Positions 15,001-24,000 of a DNA stretch of 50,987 nucleotides are shown one piece after another. The first letter of the stretch is position 1; the number at the start of each line of letters is the position of its first letter. Made by a program: the position numbers. Origin of the DNA: Candidatus Nanohaloarchaea archaeon (GTDB lineage Archaea > Nanohalarchaeota > Nanosalinia > Nanosalinales > Nanosalinaceae); contig JAWOFP010000006.1 of the NCBI GenBank assembly GCA_046497485.1, positions 1-50,987 on the forward strand. The letters run 5' to 3'.

Positions 15001-18000
15001 TGTGAGATTCGGCATCTCTTCCTTAACTACTTCAGTAATATAACTTTCAAGCTCTTCTCTCAGCTCTAAGTCCGACTCAAGGTTATCAACTACAGATTCC
15101 AGTAAGGCCTGTTCCTTTTCCCCTATTTCAGCGCCGGTAGATTTCTCAGCTAATTCAGAGAAAGAATCAAGATCATTTCTATCAACTGAATCTTTGAGAA
15201 TCTTTGTCAAATGCTCGATATCATTTACTTCGTCCACAAGCTCCGGAAAATGGAGTGAGTACCAGTCCTTGAATCTCTCATCTTTTTCTTTAATTGAGGC
15301 CTCGACATTGTCCAACATCTTGACAGCTTTTACAAGATGCTTCTCCCTGTCTTCCTCAGCCAGTTCTTCACGAGTCTCATCCAATGCTTCTTCAACTATA
15401 TCATTCGGCATCTACATCAAGCCCCATCATTCTAATCTTCTTCTCAACTTGTTCAACTTTTCGATTAAGGCCTGAAGCAATATTCTTCGTATCTGTAGTC
15501 CCAAAGCTTTCGAGAATATATCTTTCTTCCGTCCGTGAGAAAGGCTTCCAATCCGCACTTGTATCAAACTCATCACCAAGCATGAACTCCTCAAGCTCCT
15601 CGTTACTTAACTCAGTCCGGTTATTCTTCAGGAACTCGATTTCTCCTTTACTCCATTCAGTATCATTACCTGTTTCATTCTTATTCAAGGCCTTTTTCTC
15701 CATCTTCTCCTTATGAGTCATCTGCTCATCCAAGACTTTCTTGGCCTCATCAACCAGTTCATCCTTAATTTCCTCACGCTTCATACACTAAAATAGGGCT
15801 CAAAGCTTCAAAAGTCTGATCATCAAAAAATGTATTTAAGAAAATAACCACCTATATCGATTATATCGGAGCGGTGTTGGTCCAGTGGCCTAAGACCCCG
15901 GCCTTCCAAGCCGGTGACCCGGGTTCAAATCCCGGACGCCGCATCTTTCATTCTATAGAGCCTAATCAAATATATTTTTTAGGTAGATAATTACTACAAT
16001 GGCAGATTACAAGATAGGTAATAAAGTTGCTATTGAGGTTCTAGAAGAGAATATTGTGGAGTGGGCGGAAAATGAAGATTTAGGCTTCGAAATGTATGTT
16101 AGAAATTTAATGGGTTGCCATTTGGAAGAAAATTCTGCAAGTAAAGTGAGTTATGATATACAGAAAATTGGCTCTACTCTACACGATGAAGATATAGAAC
16201 GAAAAACTGCTGACGAAATATTTGATCGTATTATCAATGCAGATCCTAGAGATGATGACAAAATTTTTGGTTTAGAGCCTGAACGCGCCCAGATACAGTA
16301 CTAAAGCGCCTACAATACTATGCATTAAACCTACCTGTAACTTTCATTTTCTAGGCCTATATCGGCTAAGAATAAGTGTGAGGCTATTTGATGTGAGCAG
16401 ACTTTCCCTTGGAATGGGCATGGACAGAATGTTTCTCCTGTATCAATATCTACTCCGACGGTGTAAGAACCTGAGCCGCCTTCTACCTTGAACTGGTAGC
16501 GGTCATCGGACTGAAGCTCTAACTCTATCTTTCCTTCATCTATGAGTCTTCTGGCTTTCCCCCATTTATGGAGGTTCTCTTTCTTTTCCCGCGACATTTC
16601 CTCTGGATCCACAGATAGAATTTGGAGAACCTATTTTTAAGACGAGAAGGGTAAAGGCCTATAACTCCTGCGATTTGATTCAAAGGTATGACAGAGGAAA
16701 AATTTGTACTGGATACCTCGCTTTTCCTAGCGAACCAGATAAGAGAAGATGAGGACAGCTTAAATGAAGCGGTTGAAAGGCTGTTAGATTCTATGAATGA
16801 TTCCAGCCTTGATCTGTATATGCCGCCAACGACTTTTGAAGAATTACTGGATATTCTTGAAGGATCAGTTGAGCCTGAGAATATGAAAGAGTTGAAAACG
16901 ACTATTACTAGAAAAAGTCCTTCCCGTTACGAAGTTGATATTCCTGGCGAGATGCTTTACAGGTTCATCGGAGAGATGAGAGAAAGAGTAGATAAAGGCC
17001 TTAGACTTTCAGAAAAAGCTGTCAGAAAGGATTTAGATGAGATTGATGATCCTGAGCACGAGCATTATACCAAGACCGATGTAGTAGTCTCTAATCTTAG
17101 GGATAATTACAAGGAGAAGATGCGGAAAGGCACCATCGATTCAAAAGAAGACATTGATCTACTGCTTTTAGCTCGAGAAATTGAGGCTTCTATCGTGACA
17201 GAGGACCAGGGAGTTATTAACTGGTGTGAGGACCTCGGTGTGAGCTATATCAAAGGGAGAGATTTCCCGGATTTTCTTGAAAGTCGCTAGAGGATAAAAG
17301 AATTCCAGTCAAACACTAGACTGTGAAAAAGGCAAAAACCATTGACCAGCTCTACGAAGTAGTCAAAGAGCATGAAACAGTTCTGACATCTGATGCCGGT
17401 CTGGCCGACGCACTGAATAGAAGACTTGACAGGCCTGTAAAGGGAAGTTTTGCATCGACACCGGGAAGACTGGCATCTTCTGGAGACGAGGAATCGAAGA
17501 AAGATGTCTTTCTGAAAGCAGTTGAAGAGACTGATTATTCTTGGAAGCAGATTTCTTATGCTTTAGATAAAATCTTTGAGGCCTGGAAACACACCGGCGA
17601 ACTCGAGAAAATACTGAGTTTTGAGAGATATGATAAAGAACTATTCCAGGATATTATAGAGATTACCAAGTCATCGAATACTTCATTTCATTCAGTGGAA
17701 GAGAAAGAATTTTCAGGAGATATCGCAGTAGTGAACCTTTACCAATTTAACGAACTGGATAAAACCACTTTACCAGATGAATTTAGGGAGTACAACCTTC
17801 TAACAGACGAGGAGACAAATTTAGAGGATTTCAACATCTATGAGTCAGGCCTGGACCTGGTGAATAGCCTTATAGATAATATAGAGTCTCTGGGAGCGGA
17901 AAATATCGGGGTAGTTGTAAGGCCTGAATCAAGGTATCAAAGCCTCTTGGAAGCATACTTCAAGTCAAAGAATATCTCTTATACGAGAGACGAGAATATT

Positions 18001-21000: not shown

Positions 21001-24000
21001 AGAAGATTCTGGATGCCTCCGAACAGGCCTTCACGCTGAAAGGAAACCGTTATGAGGAAGTGCCTGAACCAGATATCGTATCACTGGAGTCAGAGGCTGA
21101 TATAGAGGATTCCGAGGTCGGAAAGTATCTCTGCGAAGACGAAAAAGAAAATATATTGGCAAAGATTCAGGAAGTGGTTGATGAAAATGATTACGATTAC
21201 TCCGATATCGCAGTCCTCTCCCGGACAAGAAAGACAGGCCTAAAACTTCAGGAGCTGGGCTCAGAATACAATATCCCGGTTGCATATGAGGGAGGCCTTG
21301 AACTGTTCAACACTGAAGAAGCCAAGTTATTACTTGCGTGGCTGAGAGCGATGAACGACTCCAGAAAAGGCTGGGCTGTCATACTGGAGAGAACAGGTTA
21401 CAGCATGACGCAGGCTAAGAAAATATTTGAGGAAGAAGAGATTCCAGAAAACTTGCTGGCTTTCAAGGATAAAGTTGAAGGCCTAGAGTTTGAAGCCCAG
21501 ATGCGTAGAATCTTCGCTTTCTATGGGTTTGAGAATGCTGTAACAGAGAAAGTAATTGATGTACTGACCGATACATACAAATCGAGTTTTATGACCCGCT
21601 CCGACCTTATTCAGTTTATTGAGGAGAATATTAATCAGCGAGAGATTTATGAAGTCGATACATCTAGAGATAGAGACAGCGTAAAGGTTCAGACTATTCA
21701 CGGCGCCAAAGGCCTAGAATATCCTGTTGTATTTATCGCAGATGTAAATTACGGGACTTTCCCATCGAAAAACAGCAGCTATGGGAGCATAAACTTTGAG
21801 GAGGTGATAGGACTTCGTCAGAGAAAAATATTTGACGAGGAAAATGGTTATGTCTTCGATAACTGGCGCTCAGAAATCCTATCTAAATGTGTGGGCGGAA
21901 AATACGATGAGGAACGCAGACTGATGTATGTAGCCATGACCCGTGCAGAAGAAAAGCTCTACATTTCAGCAGAACAGGAGAAGGAAAGCAGATTCTTTGA
22001 AGATTTGGAGCTAGAGGAAGAATTTCTTGATAAGAAACCTAAAGTTCAGGAAGAAGAGGAAAGCGAAAAAGAAGAACTGAAAGTAGAGGAACCTGATTCT
22101 ACAAGAACCAGACTGGTTTCTACTTCCGAGCATGTCGAGCTAGATGATGAATTAACAGATAATATTGAGCGAGGCGATGAGCTACACAGATTTGCAGAAG
22201 AATTCATAGAAAACAATAGAAGGCCTGAAACCACGGAAGAGGAAAAAATTGTGGAATTCATTGAAGGCCTAGAAGGAGATATAGAATCTGAGGTCAAGTT
22301 CACCTATCCTGAGAATGGGAAAGTTTACACTGGTAGAGCCGATATAATCGCGGAAACGGAAGAAAATGTAAAAGTAATTGATATCAAGACCTCCGACAAT
22401 TTCTCAGAGGCCTACAAAGACCAGATGGAGCTCTACGAAAAGGCCTTCCAAGCAATTTATCCTGATAGAAAAATTGAGACTGAAATATTCGAGGTTTAAT
22501 CTAAAAGTTAGTAGGCCTGCATTCCTGGCAGGTGTCCTAGTTTGTCTCTGCCTTCTTCTGTGACCATTTCTGGAGTCCATTTTGGGTCGAATGTTATTTC
22601 AACTTCTACTTCGTTGATTCCTTCTAGGTGTGCGACTTCCTGTCTAACCATTTCGTCGAATACTCCTGCCATTGGGCATGCTGGAGTTGTCAAGGTCATT
22701 AGAATCTCGATTCTGTCATCTATTACATCTATTTCGTAGATTAGGCCTAGATCGACTACATTTACATCTAGTTCTGGGTCCATCAGTTCCTTTAACTGTT
22801 CTCTGACTTCTTCCTCTGTGACCATATCTGATTGTGGATTTTGTATTCTTTTAACCCTTTCAAATGAATCTTTACTTGAGATGTATATTTACCGACTCGC
22901 AGGAGAGAATTTGGATTTGGCTGAGGCAGAGTTGAATGGATTCTTAGAAGCAGTTGGAGCTAATGAGATGGCTTCAAGAGATGGTAGGTTGGCCTTCACA
23001 GAGTCGCATCCCGAACAGTTGAAGAGACTGGCGCTTACTCATGAGGTACTGGAGAAGATCGATCCGGAAGAATTCAGGCCTGAAGGAAGTTATGCTGTAA
23101 GAGTCGAGAACCTTTCACAAAAAAATATTGAGAAAGAGGAAATTGAGTCAGAGATAGGACAGAAAATCTCAACTAAAGAAAATTCTGTGGACCTGGAAAA
23201 TCCTGAAACCGTAATTAAAGTCTATATTACAGAAGGAAAAAGATTTTATGCAAAGTTAGTTGAGGATATTCCAAGGAATCTTTTTGAGGAGAGAAGCAAC
23301 GAGAAGAGGCCTTATTCTTCCCCTATTTCAATGGACCCTGTTCTGGCAAGAGTATTAGTTAATTTATCTGAGGCTTCTTTAGGAGGATCTATTTTAGATC
23401 CTTTCTGTGGGACTGGCGGAATACTGATTGAAGCAGGTCTCTGTGGAATAATGCCTAAAGGCCTCGATATTCAAGAGGAAATGGTCGAAGGCTGTAAGGA
23501 AAACCTGAACAACTATGGAATAATTAATTTCGATGTTCAGAAATGCGACATATCTGAAGCTAATGAAGTATTTGATGAATATAACGCCGTTATATCCGAC
23601 CTACCGTATGGAAAGGCCTCAAAGCAGGAAAATGAAGCAATAGAAAGATTTCTGGATTTAATCGAAAATTTTGAGGGAAAAACAGTTTTCATGTATAATA
23701 AGGCTTCCGTAGGAGAGTATAAGGCTGATTTCGAGGTTTATGTGCATAAGAGCTTGACTAGACATATTTACATAATTTCTAAACCATCTTGATTTGAGTT
23801 AGACATAGTTCGATACTCACTCTCTAAGCCAGGTGCCACTAGAATTGTTTCCGACATTTCTGCCATTTTTTCACGTGGTATACCCCACTCTTTTTCTAGT
23901 TCTGACATATCAACCACTGAAAGATCATAGGTTTCACTATTTATTATCTGTGTTTGAAGTTCTCTTGAATGACGAGTATTATCTAAGTATTCAAATGGAT

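Follow-up and report, generated by a model that had tools for sequence, protein, structure and literature searches.

An AddAB-like helicase-nuclease gene pair, probably the end-resection enzyme of a nanohaloarchaeon with no detected NurA, Mre11 or Rad50

Which enzyme prepares DNA ends for recombination in an archaeon that has RadA but in which the usual Mre11-Rad50 and NurA genes go undetected? The canonical end-resection system of archaea is HerA-NurA (a hexameric FtsK-like translocase and an RNase H-like nuclease) together with Mre11-Rad50 (a phosphoesterase and an SMC-like ATPase). The genome of the Candidatus Nanohaloarchaea archaeon studied here, which is 97.35% complete, encodes RadA (297.9 bits) and yields no match to NurA, none to Mre11 with a Nanosalinaceae Mre11 as the query, and for Rad50 only matches to SMC (E 0.0017). 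Six Metallophos frames are present, five of them at most 236 aa long, and the sixth, of 534 aa, reads from its sequence as the small subunit of DNA polymerase D. A genome-wide survey's note had reported NurA and Rad50 missing from this genome and its genus, and our searches, including an equally empty one for Mre11, agree; its counts of NurA above the cut-off (38 of 70 Nanosalinales, 0 of 5 genomes of the genus) are likewise reproduced. The note had pointed to a nuclease/helicase gene pair as a bacterial-type substitute. We argue that this pair is built like AddAB and is probably the main end-resection enzyme of the cell. AddAB (RexAB) is an enzyme of Bacillota, Bacteroidota and Alphaproteobacteria; to our knowledge, enzymes of this kind are held to be missing from archaea.

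The window, i.e., the whole 50,987-nucleotide stretch analyzed, contains the two open reading frames on the forward strand exactly where the survey had placed them. The addB-like gene (17323..19833) starts with GTG and encodes P0001, 836 aa, an inactive helicase-like scaffold followed by a RecB-family nuclease; the addA-like gene (19830..22499) starts with TTG and encodes P0002, 889 aa, an active SF1A UvrD-type helicase that carries a RecB nuclease at its C-terminus. The genes overlap by 4 bp (TTGA), the TGA stop codon of the first (19831-19833) running into the TTG start of the second. Upstream, a PIN_5 gene stops at 17288-17290 (TAG), and the A+T-rich element GATAAAAG (17293..17300, forward strand), about 25 nt 5' of the GTG start, is a candidate archaeal TATA box, possibly the promoter element of a leaderless addB-like transcript. 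In 78 of 80 genome_contigs loci the addB-like gene is followed on its own strand by a P0002 homologue, the two exceptions ending at a contig edge, and the same order recurs in 29 of 29 Nanosalinales loci, three of which have gaps of 0.6-2.1 kb; the two sets overlap and include 10 sets of identical rows. No third conserved gene was found beside the pair. It is thus well supported that the two genes are translationally coupled and co-inherited without exception.

The nature of P0001 is best seen from its predicted structure. Its sequence finds no match in the PDB, as the survey had stated, and none among NCBIfam families, and a 21-sequence A1 profile also fails to find AddB in the PDB; Pfam recognizes PDDEXK_1 over residues 469-658 (47.6 bits). 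The AlphaFold2 model from a 129-sequence alignment is of high confidence (pLDDT 93.9, pTM 0.79), and the best five Foldseek matches are all AddB chains, with E values from 3.7e-13 (3u44_B, the first) to 2.7e-11, ranking ahead of AdnA and RecC. In VIA-align, AddB 3u44_B is the best whole-length match, with an rmsd of 6.4 over 666 residues spanning model positions 3-836. The SF1-helicase-like N-terminal domains (residues 1-445; 17323..18657) match UvrD 2is4_A (Z 18.0, 306 residues, model 3-445), and their N-terminus is VLTxDAxLAxALN in family members, but they are devoid of Walker A and other ATPase motifs; the P-loop is absent from all 30 family members shown in the alignment. The PD-(D/E)xK nuclease domain (residues 466-836; 18718..19830), which resembles 3l0a (Z 11.6) and RecE 3h4r (Z 10.9), is intact, with catalytic D607 (19141-19143), D617-x-K619 (19171-19179), and Q647...Y651 (19261-19275); all 129 sequences agree at H505, E594, D607, D617, K619, and Y651. 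The AddB build of P0001, a helicase-shaped scaffold incapable of binding ATP and then a second intact RecB-type nuclease, is therefore well supported. An extract of PMC3064778 describes some AddB proteins as lacking Walker A, as P0001 does.

P0002 matches UvrD-helicase (185.2 bits) and UvrD_C (131.5 bits on recomputation, replacing the 80.4 bits given by the survey) in Pfam, and its PDB sequence matches, PcrA 1pjr (154.8 bits), AddA 3u44_A (68.7), and AdnB 6ppu_B (56.1), came out as before. The helicase core (residues 1-735; 19830..22034) carries Walker A at G23-T29 (19896-19916), DEFQD at 307-311 (20748-20762), and motif VI at V701-A706, and its ATPase motifs are kept in at least 97% of 70 homologues. 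The survey had overlooked a C-terminal PD-(D/E)xK nuclease (residues ~778-889; 22161..22496), for which PDDEXK_1 reaches 21.3 bits in hmmscan, where the cut-off is 22, and 23.4 bits, above the cut-off, in the genome search. Its H786, D838 (22341-22343), D851-x-K853 (22380-22388), and Q865...Y869 are equally kept in at least 97% of the 70 homologues. In the AlphaFold2 model (pLDDT 85.0), a low-confidence linker (743-760) precedes this domain. The core alone matches UvrD 4c2u_A (Z 35.1, model 1-735), but only AddA (4ceh_A, 787 residues, model 1-889) and RecB (1w36_B) match P0002 end to end; AdnA chains give Z 23-27 but an rmsd of 25-31. These data support well that P0002 is the sole motor of the pair, an SF1A UvrD-like helicase to which a RecB-type nuclease is tethered flexibly, and by its likeness to AddA the polarity would be 3'-5'. 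Both proteins fall short of every NCBIfam cut-off for AddA or AddB; addA_Gpos gives P0002 161.9 bits where 707.65 are required.

Among the known helicase-nucleases, AddAB shares the most with the pair: adjacent genes, one for an active SF1A motor that ends in a RecB nuclease and the other for a motor-dead, helicase-shaped partner with a second RecB-family nuclease, AddB and AddA being the best whole-length structures for P0001 (Z 19.2) and P0002 (Z 30.4), respectively. The subunits are, however, ~300 residues shorter than those of AddAB (836 vs. ~1150 and 889 vs. ~1230), sequence identity in the structural alignments is just 11-12% for AddB and 22% for AddA, the AddA-type nuclease is gone in some lineages, and the hosts are archaea with RadA instead of RecA. 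AdnAB of Actinomycetes is likewise heterodimeric, both of its UvrD-like subunits ending in a RecB nuclease, and it has no Fe-S cluster, but AdnA retains the ATPase motifs that P0001 lacks and matches it less well than AddB does (Z 17.2, 523 residues aligned). RecBCD offers a motor-dead scaffold in RecC (Z 13.2 with P0001, 610 residues aligned) and a tethered nuclease in RecB (Z 25.4 with P0002), but RecC lacks an active nuclease and a third subunit, RecD, is needed, whereas the scaffold here has an intact nuclease site and no third conserved gene. The complex prediction for P0001 with P0002 residues 730-889 scores 0.50 (best of three controls, 0.00), in a test with a mark that 116 of 157 solved complexes reach, as do 2 of 215 mismatched pairs; at 0.60 or below, it is reached by just 18 of the 157 and by both of those mismatches. 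The runs share at least 89% of contacts, with partner pLDDT of at least 70. The prediction thus supports a complex weakly, and because the AddAB structure has been solved, the pass may mirror mere likeness.

The family of P0001 also bears on its identity. It comprises ~330 clusters, all of ~860 aa, and is found in 39 of 70 Nanosalinales, the same count as in the survey, and in 176 of 401 sampled Halobacteria. Distant members, some of them labelled Woesearchaeota/Nanoarchaeota, carry four cysteines as C-P-K plus CxxCx5C, which we take to be the AddB pattern and the positions at which the Fe-S cluster is bound in AddB and Cas4; one of them gives weak matches to Cas4 models. In the halophile branch this signature has been lost. 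P0001 itself has none of the four cysteines, in agreement with the survey, and since an extract of PMC3064778 reports the cluster of Bacillus subtilis AddB to be essential for DNA-end binding, this absence counts against an AddAB-like reading. The survey had spoken of a bacterial-type machine swapped in, but a bacterial label occurs on only one cluster and the family's centre of gravity is archaeal (Nanosalinales, Halobacteria, and the Woesearchaeota/Nanoarchaeota labels); it is no local bacterial import. The AddAB likeness that the survey had proposed has, on the other hand, been strengthened by the confident P0001 model, its whole-length match to AddB, the Fe-S-bearing relatives, and the strict gene linkage, and we regard it as very likely that the two genes encode an AddAB-like two-subunit helicase-nuclease.

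Whether this enzyme took the place of the canonical system is a separate matter. The two have different folds and subunits, but the job proposed for the pair, making 3' tails for RadA, is the same, and their distribution in Nanosalinaceae is partly complementary. The near-perfect mutual exclusion claimed by the survey is largely accounted for by shared ancestry: the species tree offers only 9-10 independent gains or losses of the pair to compare, of which 4-5 come with an opposite change in NurA/Mre11, none with a parallel one, and ~5 with no change. The anticorrelation thus falls short of significance, with a median p of 0.125 for NurA and of 0.0625 when NurA or any Mre11 is counted. In favor of a replacement, a clade of 25 genomes in the species tree (support 99), which includes the present one, holds 18 with the pair and without NurA and Mre11. 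Inside this clade, G055 lacks the pair and has a divergent nurA-herA-mre11-rad50 cassette, parts of which occur in its pair-less kin G057, G059, and G060. The pair and the NurA/Mre11 system occur together in 9 of the 10 f4 family genomes, as the survey had conceded, in G032, G065, and G069 of family f1, and in all 3 haloarchaea tested; G035 and G053 have the pair alongside Mre11-like genes, and three f1 genomes (G021, G045, G059) have neither the pair nor NurA. Because many of the genomes compared are incomplete bins, gene absences are unproven. That the pair took over from Mre11-Rad50/NurA is plausible, with a chance we put slightly short of even.

By analogy to AddAB, the P0001-P0002 heterodimer would bind a double-stranded DNA end, and the P0002 motor would draw the 3'-ended strand through and split the duplex; each nuclease would cut one strand, leaving a 3' single-stranded tail that RadA could use for homologous recombination. 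Since RadA is found and NurA, Mre11, and Rad50 are undetected in the genome and genus, we read the pair as the main, perhaps only, enzyme that resects double-strand-break ends in this cell, and on balance favor end resection for recombination as its chief role here. Like RecBCD and AddAB, it would also degrade linear foreign DNA, which could explain the abundance and mobility of the module in haloarchaea, organisms that retain Mre11-Rad50/NurA.

This second activity could instead be the principal one, the pair being chiefly an antiviral or antiplasmid nuclease or a selfish mobile module that degrades invading linear DNA from the termini inward. It would then have spread through the exchange of defence islands between nanohaloarchaea and the haloarchaea that host them, and the loss of Mre11-Rad50/NurA in small genomes would be unrelated genome reduction. 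Haloarchaeal copies are indeed often borne on plasmids or secondary replicons (L057, L060, L066, L069, L092, L094), adjoin Cap15, Mrr with ResIII and DUF499, SNF2 with AAA_5, integrase, and Cdc6, and are near-identical across genera (branch lengths 0.005-0.03); their presence in under half of the Halobacteria sampled, some with 2-3 copies, is an accessory pattern, and the frequent coexistence with NurA/Mre11 fits as well. A concern that the survey had raised, a Gabija-like defence role, may apply to the haloarchaeal copies but finds no support at the present locus, whose neighbors are housekeeping genes (Nre, an XPD-like helicase, fibrillarin, Nop5, the PIN_5 protein, and tRNA methyltransferases), as at three other nanohaloarchaeal loci scanned. 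No PADLOC model matches P0001, and P0002 matches only a generic UvrD type. In the main Nanosalinaceae clade the gene tree broadly parallels the species tree, suggesting that inheritance there has long been vertical, and the loss of the motor nuclease in some lineages would weaken an enzyme that destroys DNA but not one that resects it. RecBCD and AddAB are held to serve both repair and the destruction of foreign DNA, so the two roles are compatible, and we consider a chiefly defensive or selfish one rather unlikely. An extract of PMC5704561 (Hudaiberdiev et al. 2017) describes fusions of a UvrD-type helicase with a PF12705 nuclease in bacteria and mesophilic archaea, often in defence or non-conserved contexts, which lends this role some support; as described there, these are stand-alone genes, unlike the obligate pair with an AddB-like subunit seen here.

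It is distinctly unlikely, in our view, that the AddAB-like enzyme serves another DNA transaction, e.g., fork restart or the processing of stalled or reversed forks, without replacing or overlapping Mre11-Rad50/NurA, while unrecognized proteins such as the remaining HerA-like ATPase and an unknown nuclease carry out resection. A HerA-like DUF87 protein, which contains an intein and ends in a winged helix, does persist in the genome (89.5 bits), five contrasts leave NurA/Mre11 unchanged, and the three f1 genomes have neither pair nor NurA; against this, no contrast goes the same way and 4-5 go the opposite way, genus g18 is reciprocal, with a foreign nurA-herA-mre11-rad50 cassette and no pair, and searches for NurA, Mre11, Rad50, and PDDEXK_1 show no further end-processing nuclease. 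That P0002 is the UvrD of a bacterial-type UvrABC excision repair system and P0001 an accessory is highly improbable: uvrA and uvrB are present (contig C12) and P0002 is the only UvrD-family helicase of the genome, but this reading is largely refuted by UvrB exceeding its cut-off in just 8 of 70 Nanosalinales and in none of the 4 other genomes of the genus, compared to 39 of 70 with the pair, and by a helicase that has its own nuclease and is constantly linked to an AddB-like gene.

A sub-lineage of Nanosalinaceae has lost the P0002 nuclease, and its machine would cut one strand only. In AddAB, the strand cut by the remaining, AddB-side nuclease is the 5'-ended one; with only the nuclease of the scaffold subunit left, such cutting would suit resection, not destruction.

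The two genes of the pair lie on the same strand of contig C62, one of the 66 contigs of a genome of 967,558 bases with a completeness of 97.35%. The addB-like ORF, which encodes P0001 (836 aa, GTG start), runs from 17323 to 19833 and is followed from 19830 to 22499 by the addA-like ORF encoding P0002 (889 aa, TTG start), with a 4-bp overlap in which the stop of the former and the start of the latter share TTGA. A GATAAAAG box located ~25 nt upstream of the P0001 start is a possible TATA box. The surrounding genes encode Nre, an XPD-like helicase, a nucleotidyltransferase, fibrillarin, Nop5, a NUDIX protein, a PIN_5 protein, an Fe-S assembly protein, tRNA methyltransferases, and tRNase Z; as both flanks thus consist of housekeeping genes, the locus is not a defence island. 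The genes for the Nre protein (Nre_N, 252 bits) and the XPD/Rad3-like helicase (DEAD_2, HBB, and Helicase_C_2 domains) occupy positions 8602-12591, 5-9 kb upstream of the pair, with an opposite-strand DUF7544 gene between the two. A gene for a small DUF5615/PIN-like protein (74 bits) at 12852-13187 adjoins a cytidylyltransferase-like gene and may be a toxin-antitoxin-type remnant.

P0002 carries UvrD-helicase (185.2 bits) and UvrD_C (131.5 bits) domains. The genome-wide survey's note had described it as a helicase of the UvrD/PcrA type, which these domains bear out, and the PDB sequence matches listed there were obtained again with the same values, but a C-terminal PDDEXK_1 nuclease domain had been overlooked, with scores of 21.3 bits (hmmscan) and 23.4 bits (genome search, over the cut-off). 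Conservation reaches at least 97% across 70 full-length homologues for the helicase motifs (Walker A G23-T29 with its lysine K28, DEFQD 307-311, and motifs III, V, and VI) as well as for the residues of the nuclease (H786, D838, D851-x-K853, and Q865...Y869). An AlphaFold2 model built on a 41-sequence alignment (pLDDT 85.0, pTM 0.74) superimposes through residues 1-735 on UvrD, Rep, and PcrA with Z scores of 32-35. The cleanest end-to-end matches, spanning residues 1-889, are AddA (4ceh_A; Z 30.4, rmsd 12.4, 787 aligned residues) and RecB (1w36_B; Z 25.4, 746 aligned), while AdnA chains match residues 9-889 with Z scores of 23-27, but with an rmsd of 25-31. The linker ahead of the nuclease domain (residues 743-760) is modelled at low confidence, and presumably resembles the tethers of the RecB and AddA nucleases. 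P0002 therefore combines the complete SF1A helicase motifs with a C-terminal RecB-family nuclease, as expected of an AddA-type subunit.

The other subunit is far more divergent. Pfam detects only PDDEXK_1 in P0001 (47.6 bits), none of the NCBIfam families matches it, and PDB sequence searches with P0001 alone and with a 21-sequence profile returned no relative. An exhaustive phmmer search of 1.84 billion cluster representatives yielded only 330 relatives at E ≤0.001, of which 275 reach E ≤1e-10; among the 150 listed, the majority are ~820-920 aa long, and the remainder are shorter pieces. At the level of sequence, the family is thus compact and does not merge with bacterial AddB. With the sequence routes to the PDB empty, fold and cysteine signature are the sole grounds for the link to AddB. 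The poor model (pLDDT 54.6) on which the AddB likeness had first been proposed was superseded by an AlphaFold2 model based on 129 sequences (pLDDT 93.9, pTM 0.79), in which the likeness persists. The top five Foldseek matches are all AddB chains (3u44_B: E 3.7e-13, TM 0.49), followed by AdnA (2.4e-11) and RecC (1.2e-8). The order is the same in VIA-align, where AddB 3u44_B gives Z 19.2 and rmsd 6.4 over 666 residues (model 3-836, chain 9-1131), AdnA Z 17.2 (523 residues), and RecC Z 13.2 (610 residues). The match to UvrD is confined to the N-terminal half (model 3-445, Z 18.0) and that to stand-alone nucleases to the C-terminal half (3l0a, model 466-836, Z 11.6), which together indicate that the N-terminal half is shaped like a helicase and the C-terminal half is a RecB-family nuclease. 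Neither P0001 nor the 29 other family members shown contain a Walker A motif or P-loop, the N-terminus reading VLTxDAxLAxALN, whereas H505, E594, D607, D617, K619, and Y651 are invariant among the 129 sequences. P0001 thus has the hallmarks of an AddB-type subunit, namely a helicase-like fold devoid of helicase motifs and an intact C-terminal RecB-family nuclease.

The cysteine signature is found in distant members of the family. P0115, P0128, and others carry a C-P-K cysteine where the nuclease domain begins and a CxxCx5C motif at the C-terminus, the same arrangement as the Fe-S cluster ligands of AddB, Cas4, and Dna2, and in one cysteine-bearing member the cysteine segments give weak matches to Cas4 models. 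All four cysteines are missing in P0001 and in every nanohaloarchaeal member shown, in agreement with the absence of Fe-S cysteines already noted for P0001. In haloarchaeal members the three C-terminal cysteines are missing, and the first is kept in a few sequences of the cysteine-less branch. Since the signature occurs in distant members and the split between cysteine-bearing and cysteine-less members is fully supported in both trees, we conclude that the family is of the AddB type and that the halophile branch has lost the cluster. According to a study on Bacillus subtilis AddB (PMC3064778), binding of DNA ends requires the Fe-S cluster, and its loss in the halophile branch is therefore a real difference. 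Among cysteine-bearing members with a name, the labels are Woesearchaeota/Nanoarchaeota (including one member on a 1.54-Mb contig), 'archaeon', and, for one cluster, Candidatus Poribacteria. These archaeal labels do not support a bacterial origin of the family, and the reading of the pair as a bacterial-type machine swapped into this lineage is likewise unsupported, the named distant members being mostly archaeal-labelled with a single Poribacteria cluster. In the Poribacteria-labelled branch of P0115, no P0002 homologue was found at any of four metagenome loci within 1-4 kb of flank (tblastn, E ≤1e-5), and the neighbours at the one locus scanned, L215, are housekeeping genes.

Elsewhere the two genes travel together. 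At 78 of 80 loci from the genome_contigs collection, the addB-like gene is followed on the same strand by a P0002 homologue, the remaining two loci ending at a contig edge. The same arrangement is seen at all 29 loci from Nanosalinales genomes, three of which have gaps of 0.6-2.1 kb between the genes. The two sets overlap (10 sets of identical rows), and the 80 loci were retrieved with alignment A1 rather than with the diverse alignment A2, which lacks a conserved stretch, and are thus skewed towards halophiles. Together with the 4-bp overlap, these counts show the adjacent, co-inherited subunit genes typical of AddAB. There is no third conserved gene beside the pair, the commonest flank cluster being present at 10 of the 80 loci. 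A predicted complex of P0001 with residues 730-889 of P0002 lends weak support to a heterodimer, as it scored 0.50 in three runs, compared to 0.00 for the best of three controls, with a contact agreement between runs of at least 89% and a partner pLDDT of at least 70. Of 157 solved complexes, 116 attain the mark for this score, as do 2 of 215 mismatched pairs, but scores up to 0.60 comprise only 18 of the 157 solved complexes and both passing mismatches, and as the AddAB heterodimer is itself solved, the score may reflect likeness alone.

Compared to the known systems, the pair is closest to AddAB, as it matches both the motor-plus-nuclease build of AddA and the dead-helicase-fold-plus-nuclease build of AddB. 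It differs in that the nuclease domain of AddB is stapled by a four-cysteine Fe-S cluster, which P0001 lacks, and P0002 falls below the NCBIfam AddA equivalog cut-offs (addA_Gpos, 161.9 vs 707.65 bits; addA_alphas, 142.7 vs 860.75 bits). In AdnAB both subunits, AdnA included, retain their ATPase motifs, whereas P0001 and the 29 relatives shown have no Walker A motif. RecBCD has a third subunit, RecD, and a nuclease-dead RecC, whereas no third conserved neighbour is present here and the nuclease motifs of P0001 are intact; of the two proteins, the recD model matches P0002 alone (12.6 bits). The pair is thus a real and conserved two-subunit helicase-nuclease of AddAB build, representing a new archaeal variant without the Fe-S cluster. 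By analogy, it is predicted to have an AddAB-type activity, that is, ATP-dependent unwinding of double-stranded DNA ends with cleavage of both strands, which in AddAB is under the control of Chi.

In AddAB, cleavage of the 3'-ended strand falls to the AddA nuclease and that of the 5'-ended strand to its AddB counterpart. Some lineages have dispensed with the AddA-type nuclease, as the helicase gene of genera g15, g16, g9, and g14 encodes 758-777 aa compared to about 890-960 aa elsewhere. Six short ORFs (L102, L123, and L141, L145, L146, and L147, the latter four from genomes G050, G046, G036, and G051 of g15, g16, and g9) end 45-49 residues past motif VI and have no nuclease domain, while the equally short g14 helicase (G043, 771 aa) is assigned to this form by its length alone. 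Nuclease loss was scored from the ORF tails, as tblastn with a 160-residue tail is too insensitive (20 of 80 and 7 of 29 loci at E < 1e-3). The one-nuclease lineages constitute a single subclade of the P0001 tree (support 91). If the AddAB strand assignment holds, the one-nuclease form would resect the 5' strand only, which would be a better fit to recombination than to destruction of DNA.

The P0001 family is present in 39 of 70 Nanosalinales genomes, and a phylum-wide search returned the same 70 genomes as the order-wide one. A search with the haloarchaeal member P0025 found relatives in 176 of the 401 Halobacteria genomes sampled, a few of them encoding two or three copies. The 80 best loci cover many haloarchaeal genera, with Halomicrobium katesii DSM 19301 and Halorubrum saccharovorum DSM 1137 among the cultivable carriers, and several are on plasmids (L057, L060, L066, L069, and L092) or on a second chromosome (L094). 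The haloarchaeal flanks scanned contain a Cap15 receptor domain, Mrr with ResIII and DUF499, SNF2 with AAA_5, an integrase, and Cdc6, and a large SMC_N/AAA_21 ATPase also adjoins a haloarchaeal copy on plasmid or secondary-replicon loci; the L066 flank scan gave no family match. Near-identical copies of the pair are found in different haloarchaeal genera. Based on the plasmid siting, the defence-gene flanks, and these near-identical copies, the haloarchaeal module behaves as a mobile accessory. The haloarchaeal copies may accordingly serve as defence or mobile modules, a role that is compatible with one in repair. A mixture-model tree recovers the main Nanosalinaceae clade with support 98, and a group of Halobacteria, two metagenomic sequences, and one f4 genome with support 97, but its backbone lacks support, and donor and recipient therefore cannot be told apart between haloarchaea and nanohaloarchaea.

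A defence role was also raised by the likeness of P0002 to the helicase of Gabija, in which UvrD-like GajB is encoded beside the OLD-family ATPase/TOPRIM nuclease GajA. At the locus in the window this reading can be rejected, because no GajA-type neighbour is present and the matches of P0002 to GajB models are those expected for any UvrD-type helicase; among PADLOC models, P0001 matches none except PDC-S63 (E 0.0042). Hudaiberdiev et al. 2017 (PMC5704561), in the accessible part of the text, report UvrD-Cas4-like fusions with defence-type neighbours in bacteria and mesophilic archaea, but describe no AddB-like partner there, whereas P0002 has one. UvrABC-UvrD excision repair is dismissed by distribution, since only eight of the 70 Nanosalinales genomes encode UvrB, the four congeners not being among them, against 39 that carry the pair. 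UvrD-family helicases occur in 41 of the 70 genomes, almost only as partners of an AddB-like gene. The genome of the window has uvrA (964 aa) and uvrB (695 aa) in divergent orientation on contig C12 (8881-13818), and given this distribution, uvrB is probably a recent acquisition.

NurA and Mre11 are each encoded in 38 of the 70 Nanosalinales genomes and in none of the five of the window's own genus. Apart from a cassette in genome G055 (see below), nurA is solitary in Nanosalinaceae, beside genes for a HAD hydrolase and MetRS. The window's own genome has no match to NurA, and none to the Mre11 of G067, a Nanosalinaceae genome with an mre11-rad50 operon. Five of its six Metallophos frames are at most 236 aa long, and the sixth, of 534 aa on C43, reads as the small subunit of polymerase D. 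On C38, a 230-aa Metallophos frame considered as Mre11 is by Pfam a small phosphoesterase beside PolB, and a 647-aa frame considered as Rad50 is by Pfam Hsp70 (DnaK). The zinc-hook Pfam model is too insensitive for Rad50 (only 3 of 14 control genomes exceed its cut-off), and AAA_23 and a Nanosalinaceae Rad50 were used instead; the G067 Rad50 matches SMC alone in the window's own genome (E 0.0017), and the sole AAA_23 match over the cut-off is likewise the SMC gene, apparently the 794-aa frame on C13 with a hinge. RadA is present (297.9 bits), as is a RadB-like paralogue. A HerA-like protein of 1136 aa (C10, 2784-6191, minus strand; DUF87 89.5 bits, winged-helix end), split by an intein that carries a LAGLIDADG domain, is retained despite the absence of NurA.

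The genome-wide survey's note had proposed that the pair displaced this canonical system, stating that its AddB-like gene and NurA exclude each other almost perfectly. In family f1, to which the window's own genome belongs, 29 of 50 genomes have the pair and 21 NurA, with three having both and three neither; in f4, nine of ten genomes have the pair and all ten NurA (nine both, none neither), and in f5, none of eight has the pair and six have NurA, leaving two with neither. In order to remove shared ancestry, a species tree was constructed from RpoB' and RpoA' (1424 columns; IQ-TREE quick search, LG+G4) for 61 of the 70 genomes, G025 being omitted because of a gene split over contigs, and G002, G005, G008, G012, G016, G018, G019, and G020 because matches were lacking or partial or were not fetched. 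It splits f1 in two. In the clade with the window's own genome (25 genomes, support 99), 18 have the pair without NurA or Mre11, while in the other (24 genomes), 13 lack the pair but have both NurA and Mre11, and five have the pair only (G050, G051, G061, G022, and G036). Among 9-10 independent pairs of genomes, the helicase-nuclease and NurA changed in the same way in none, in opposite ways in 3-4, and not at all in 6-7 (median p 0.125); counting NurA or any Mre11, the numbers are none, 4-5, and about five (median p 0.0625). The contrasts are thus consistent in direction and rest on four or five events. The almost perfect exclusion is largely a matter of shared ancestry, and nine of the ten f4 genomes and three f1 genomes hold both systems.

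The trees add two cases. The copies of the pair-only lineages g16 and g9, in the second f1 clade, are nested among first-clade copies, which suggests transfer of the pair and then loss of the old system. Conversely, a subgroup of g18 without the pair lies inside the first f1 clade. One of its genomes, G055, has a tight nurA-herA-mre11-rad50 cassette (L217 = G055:C7:302500-313000, positions 2468-9096; rad50 in two ORFs), the Mre11 of which shares only 26% identity with the one common in Nanosalinaceae, and its kin G057, G059, and G060 have parts of such a cassette. Both cases favour a functional overlap of the two systems. In the three f1 genomes with both, the pair copies fall outside the main f1 clade, those of G065 and G069 near f4 copies (FastTree); G035 and G053 have the pair alongside Mre11-like genes, and all three haloarchaea tested have the pair and NurA together. 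Such coexistence argues against a strict swap. Replacement of Mre11-Rad50/NurA by the pair in the window's own lineage is therefore plausible, being supported in direction rather than established.

An AddAB-built pair that is widespread in halophilic archaea goes against the view of RecBCD and AddAB as bacterial. A 2026 preprint on Haloferax volcanii states that they 'are not present in archaea', with no direct homologues in H. volcanii, and a 2026 NurA review sets bacterial RecBCD/AddAB against archaeal NurA-HerA-Mre11-Rad50. Our literature search found no description of an archaeal AddAB-like pair, although archaeal homologues may have been mentioned earlier, and the main texts of two Nanohaloarchaeota/DPANN comparative-genomics papers contain no mention of UvrD, RecB, Mre11, NurA, or DNA repair. 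According to the same preprint, recombination in a haloarchaeon continues after deletion of mre11-rad50; the pair is a candidate agent for such recombination, and it is also relevant to the source of DNA ends for archaeal CRISPR spacers. The natural AddB variants without an Fe-S cluster and AddA variants without a nuclease offer tests of the roles of those parts, and with related genomes having one system, the other, or both, interchangeability can be tested genetically in cultivable haloarchaea. A tentative reading, less likely than not to hold as a whole, is that archaea own an old AddAB lineage. This lineage would have arisen or long resided in DPANN archaea with an AddB-type Fe-S cluster, lost the cluster on entry to the high-salt world, later moved between nanohaloarchaeal symbionts and haloarchaeal hosts, and taken over end resection in several nanohaloarchaeal lineages, with the swap reversed in one genus through a foreign nurA-herA-mre11-rad50 cassette; its form without the motor nuclease would resect one strand and hence need no Chi-like switch.

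Some copies of the pair appear to be interrupted. At G061:C3:597828-615669, in a bin with 7% contamination, the AddB-like gene is split in two parts with 7.7 kb between them, and the helicase matches likewise fall into several pieces, which may reflect insertion, inteins, or decay. At four further loci (L064, 6628-10757; L139; L145; and L149), the helicase match is spread over ~4 kb or begins 0.6-2.1 kb past the AddB-like gene, which hints at inserted elements or inteins.
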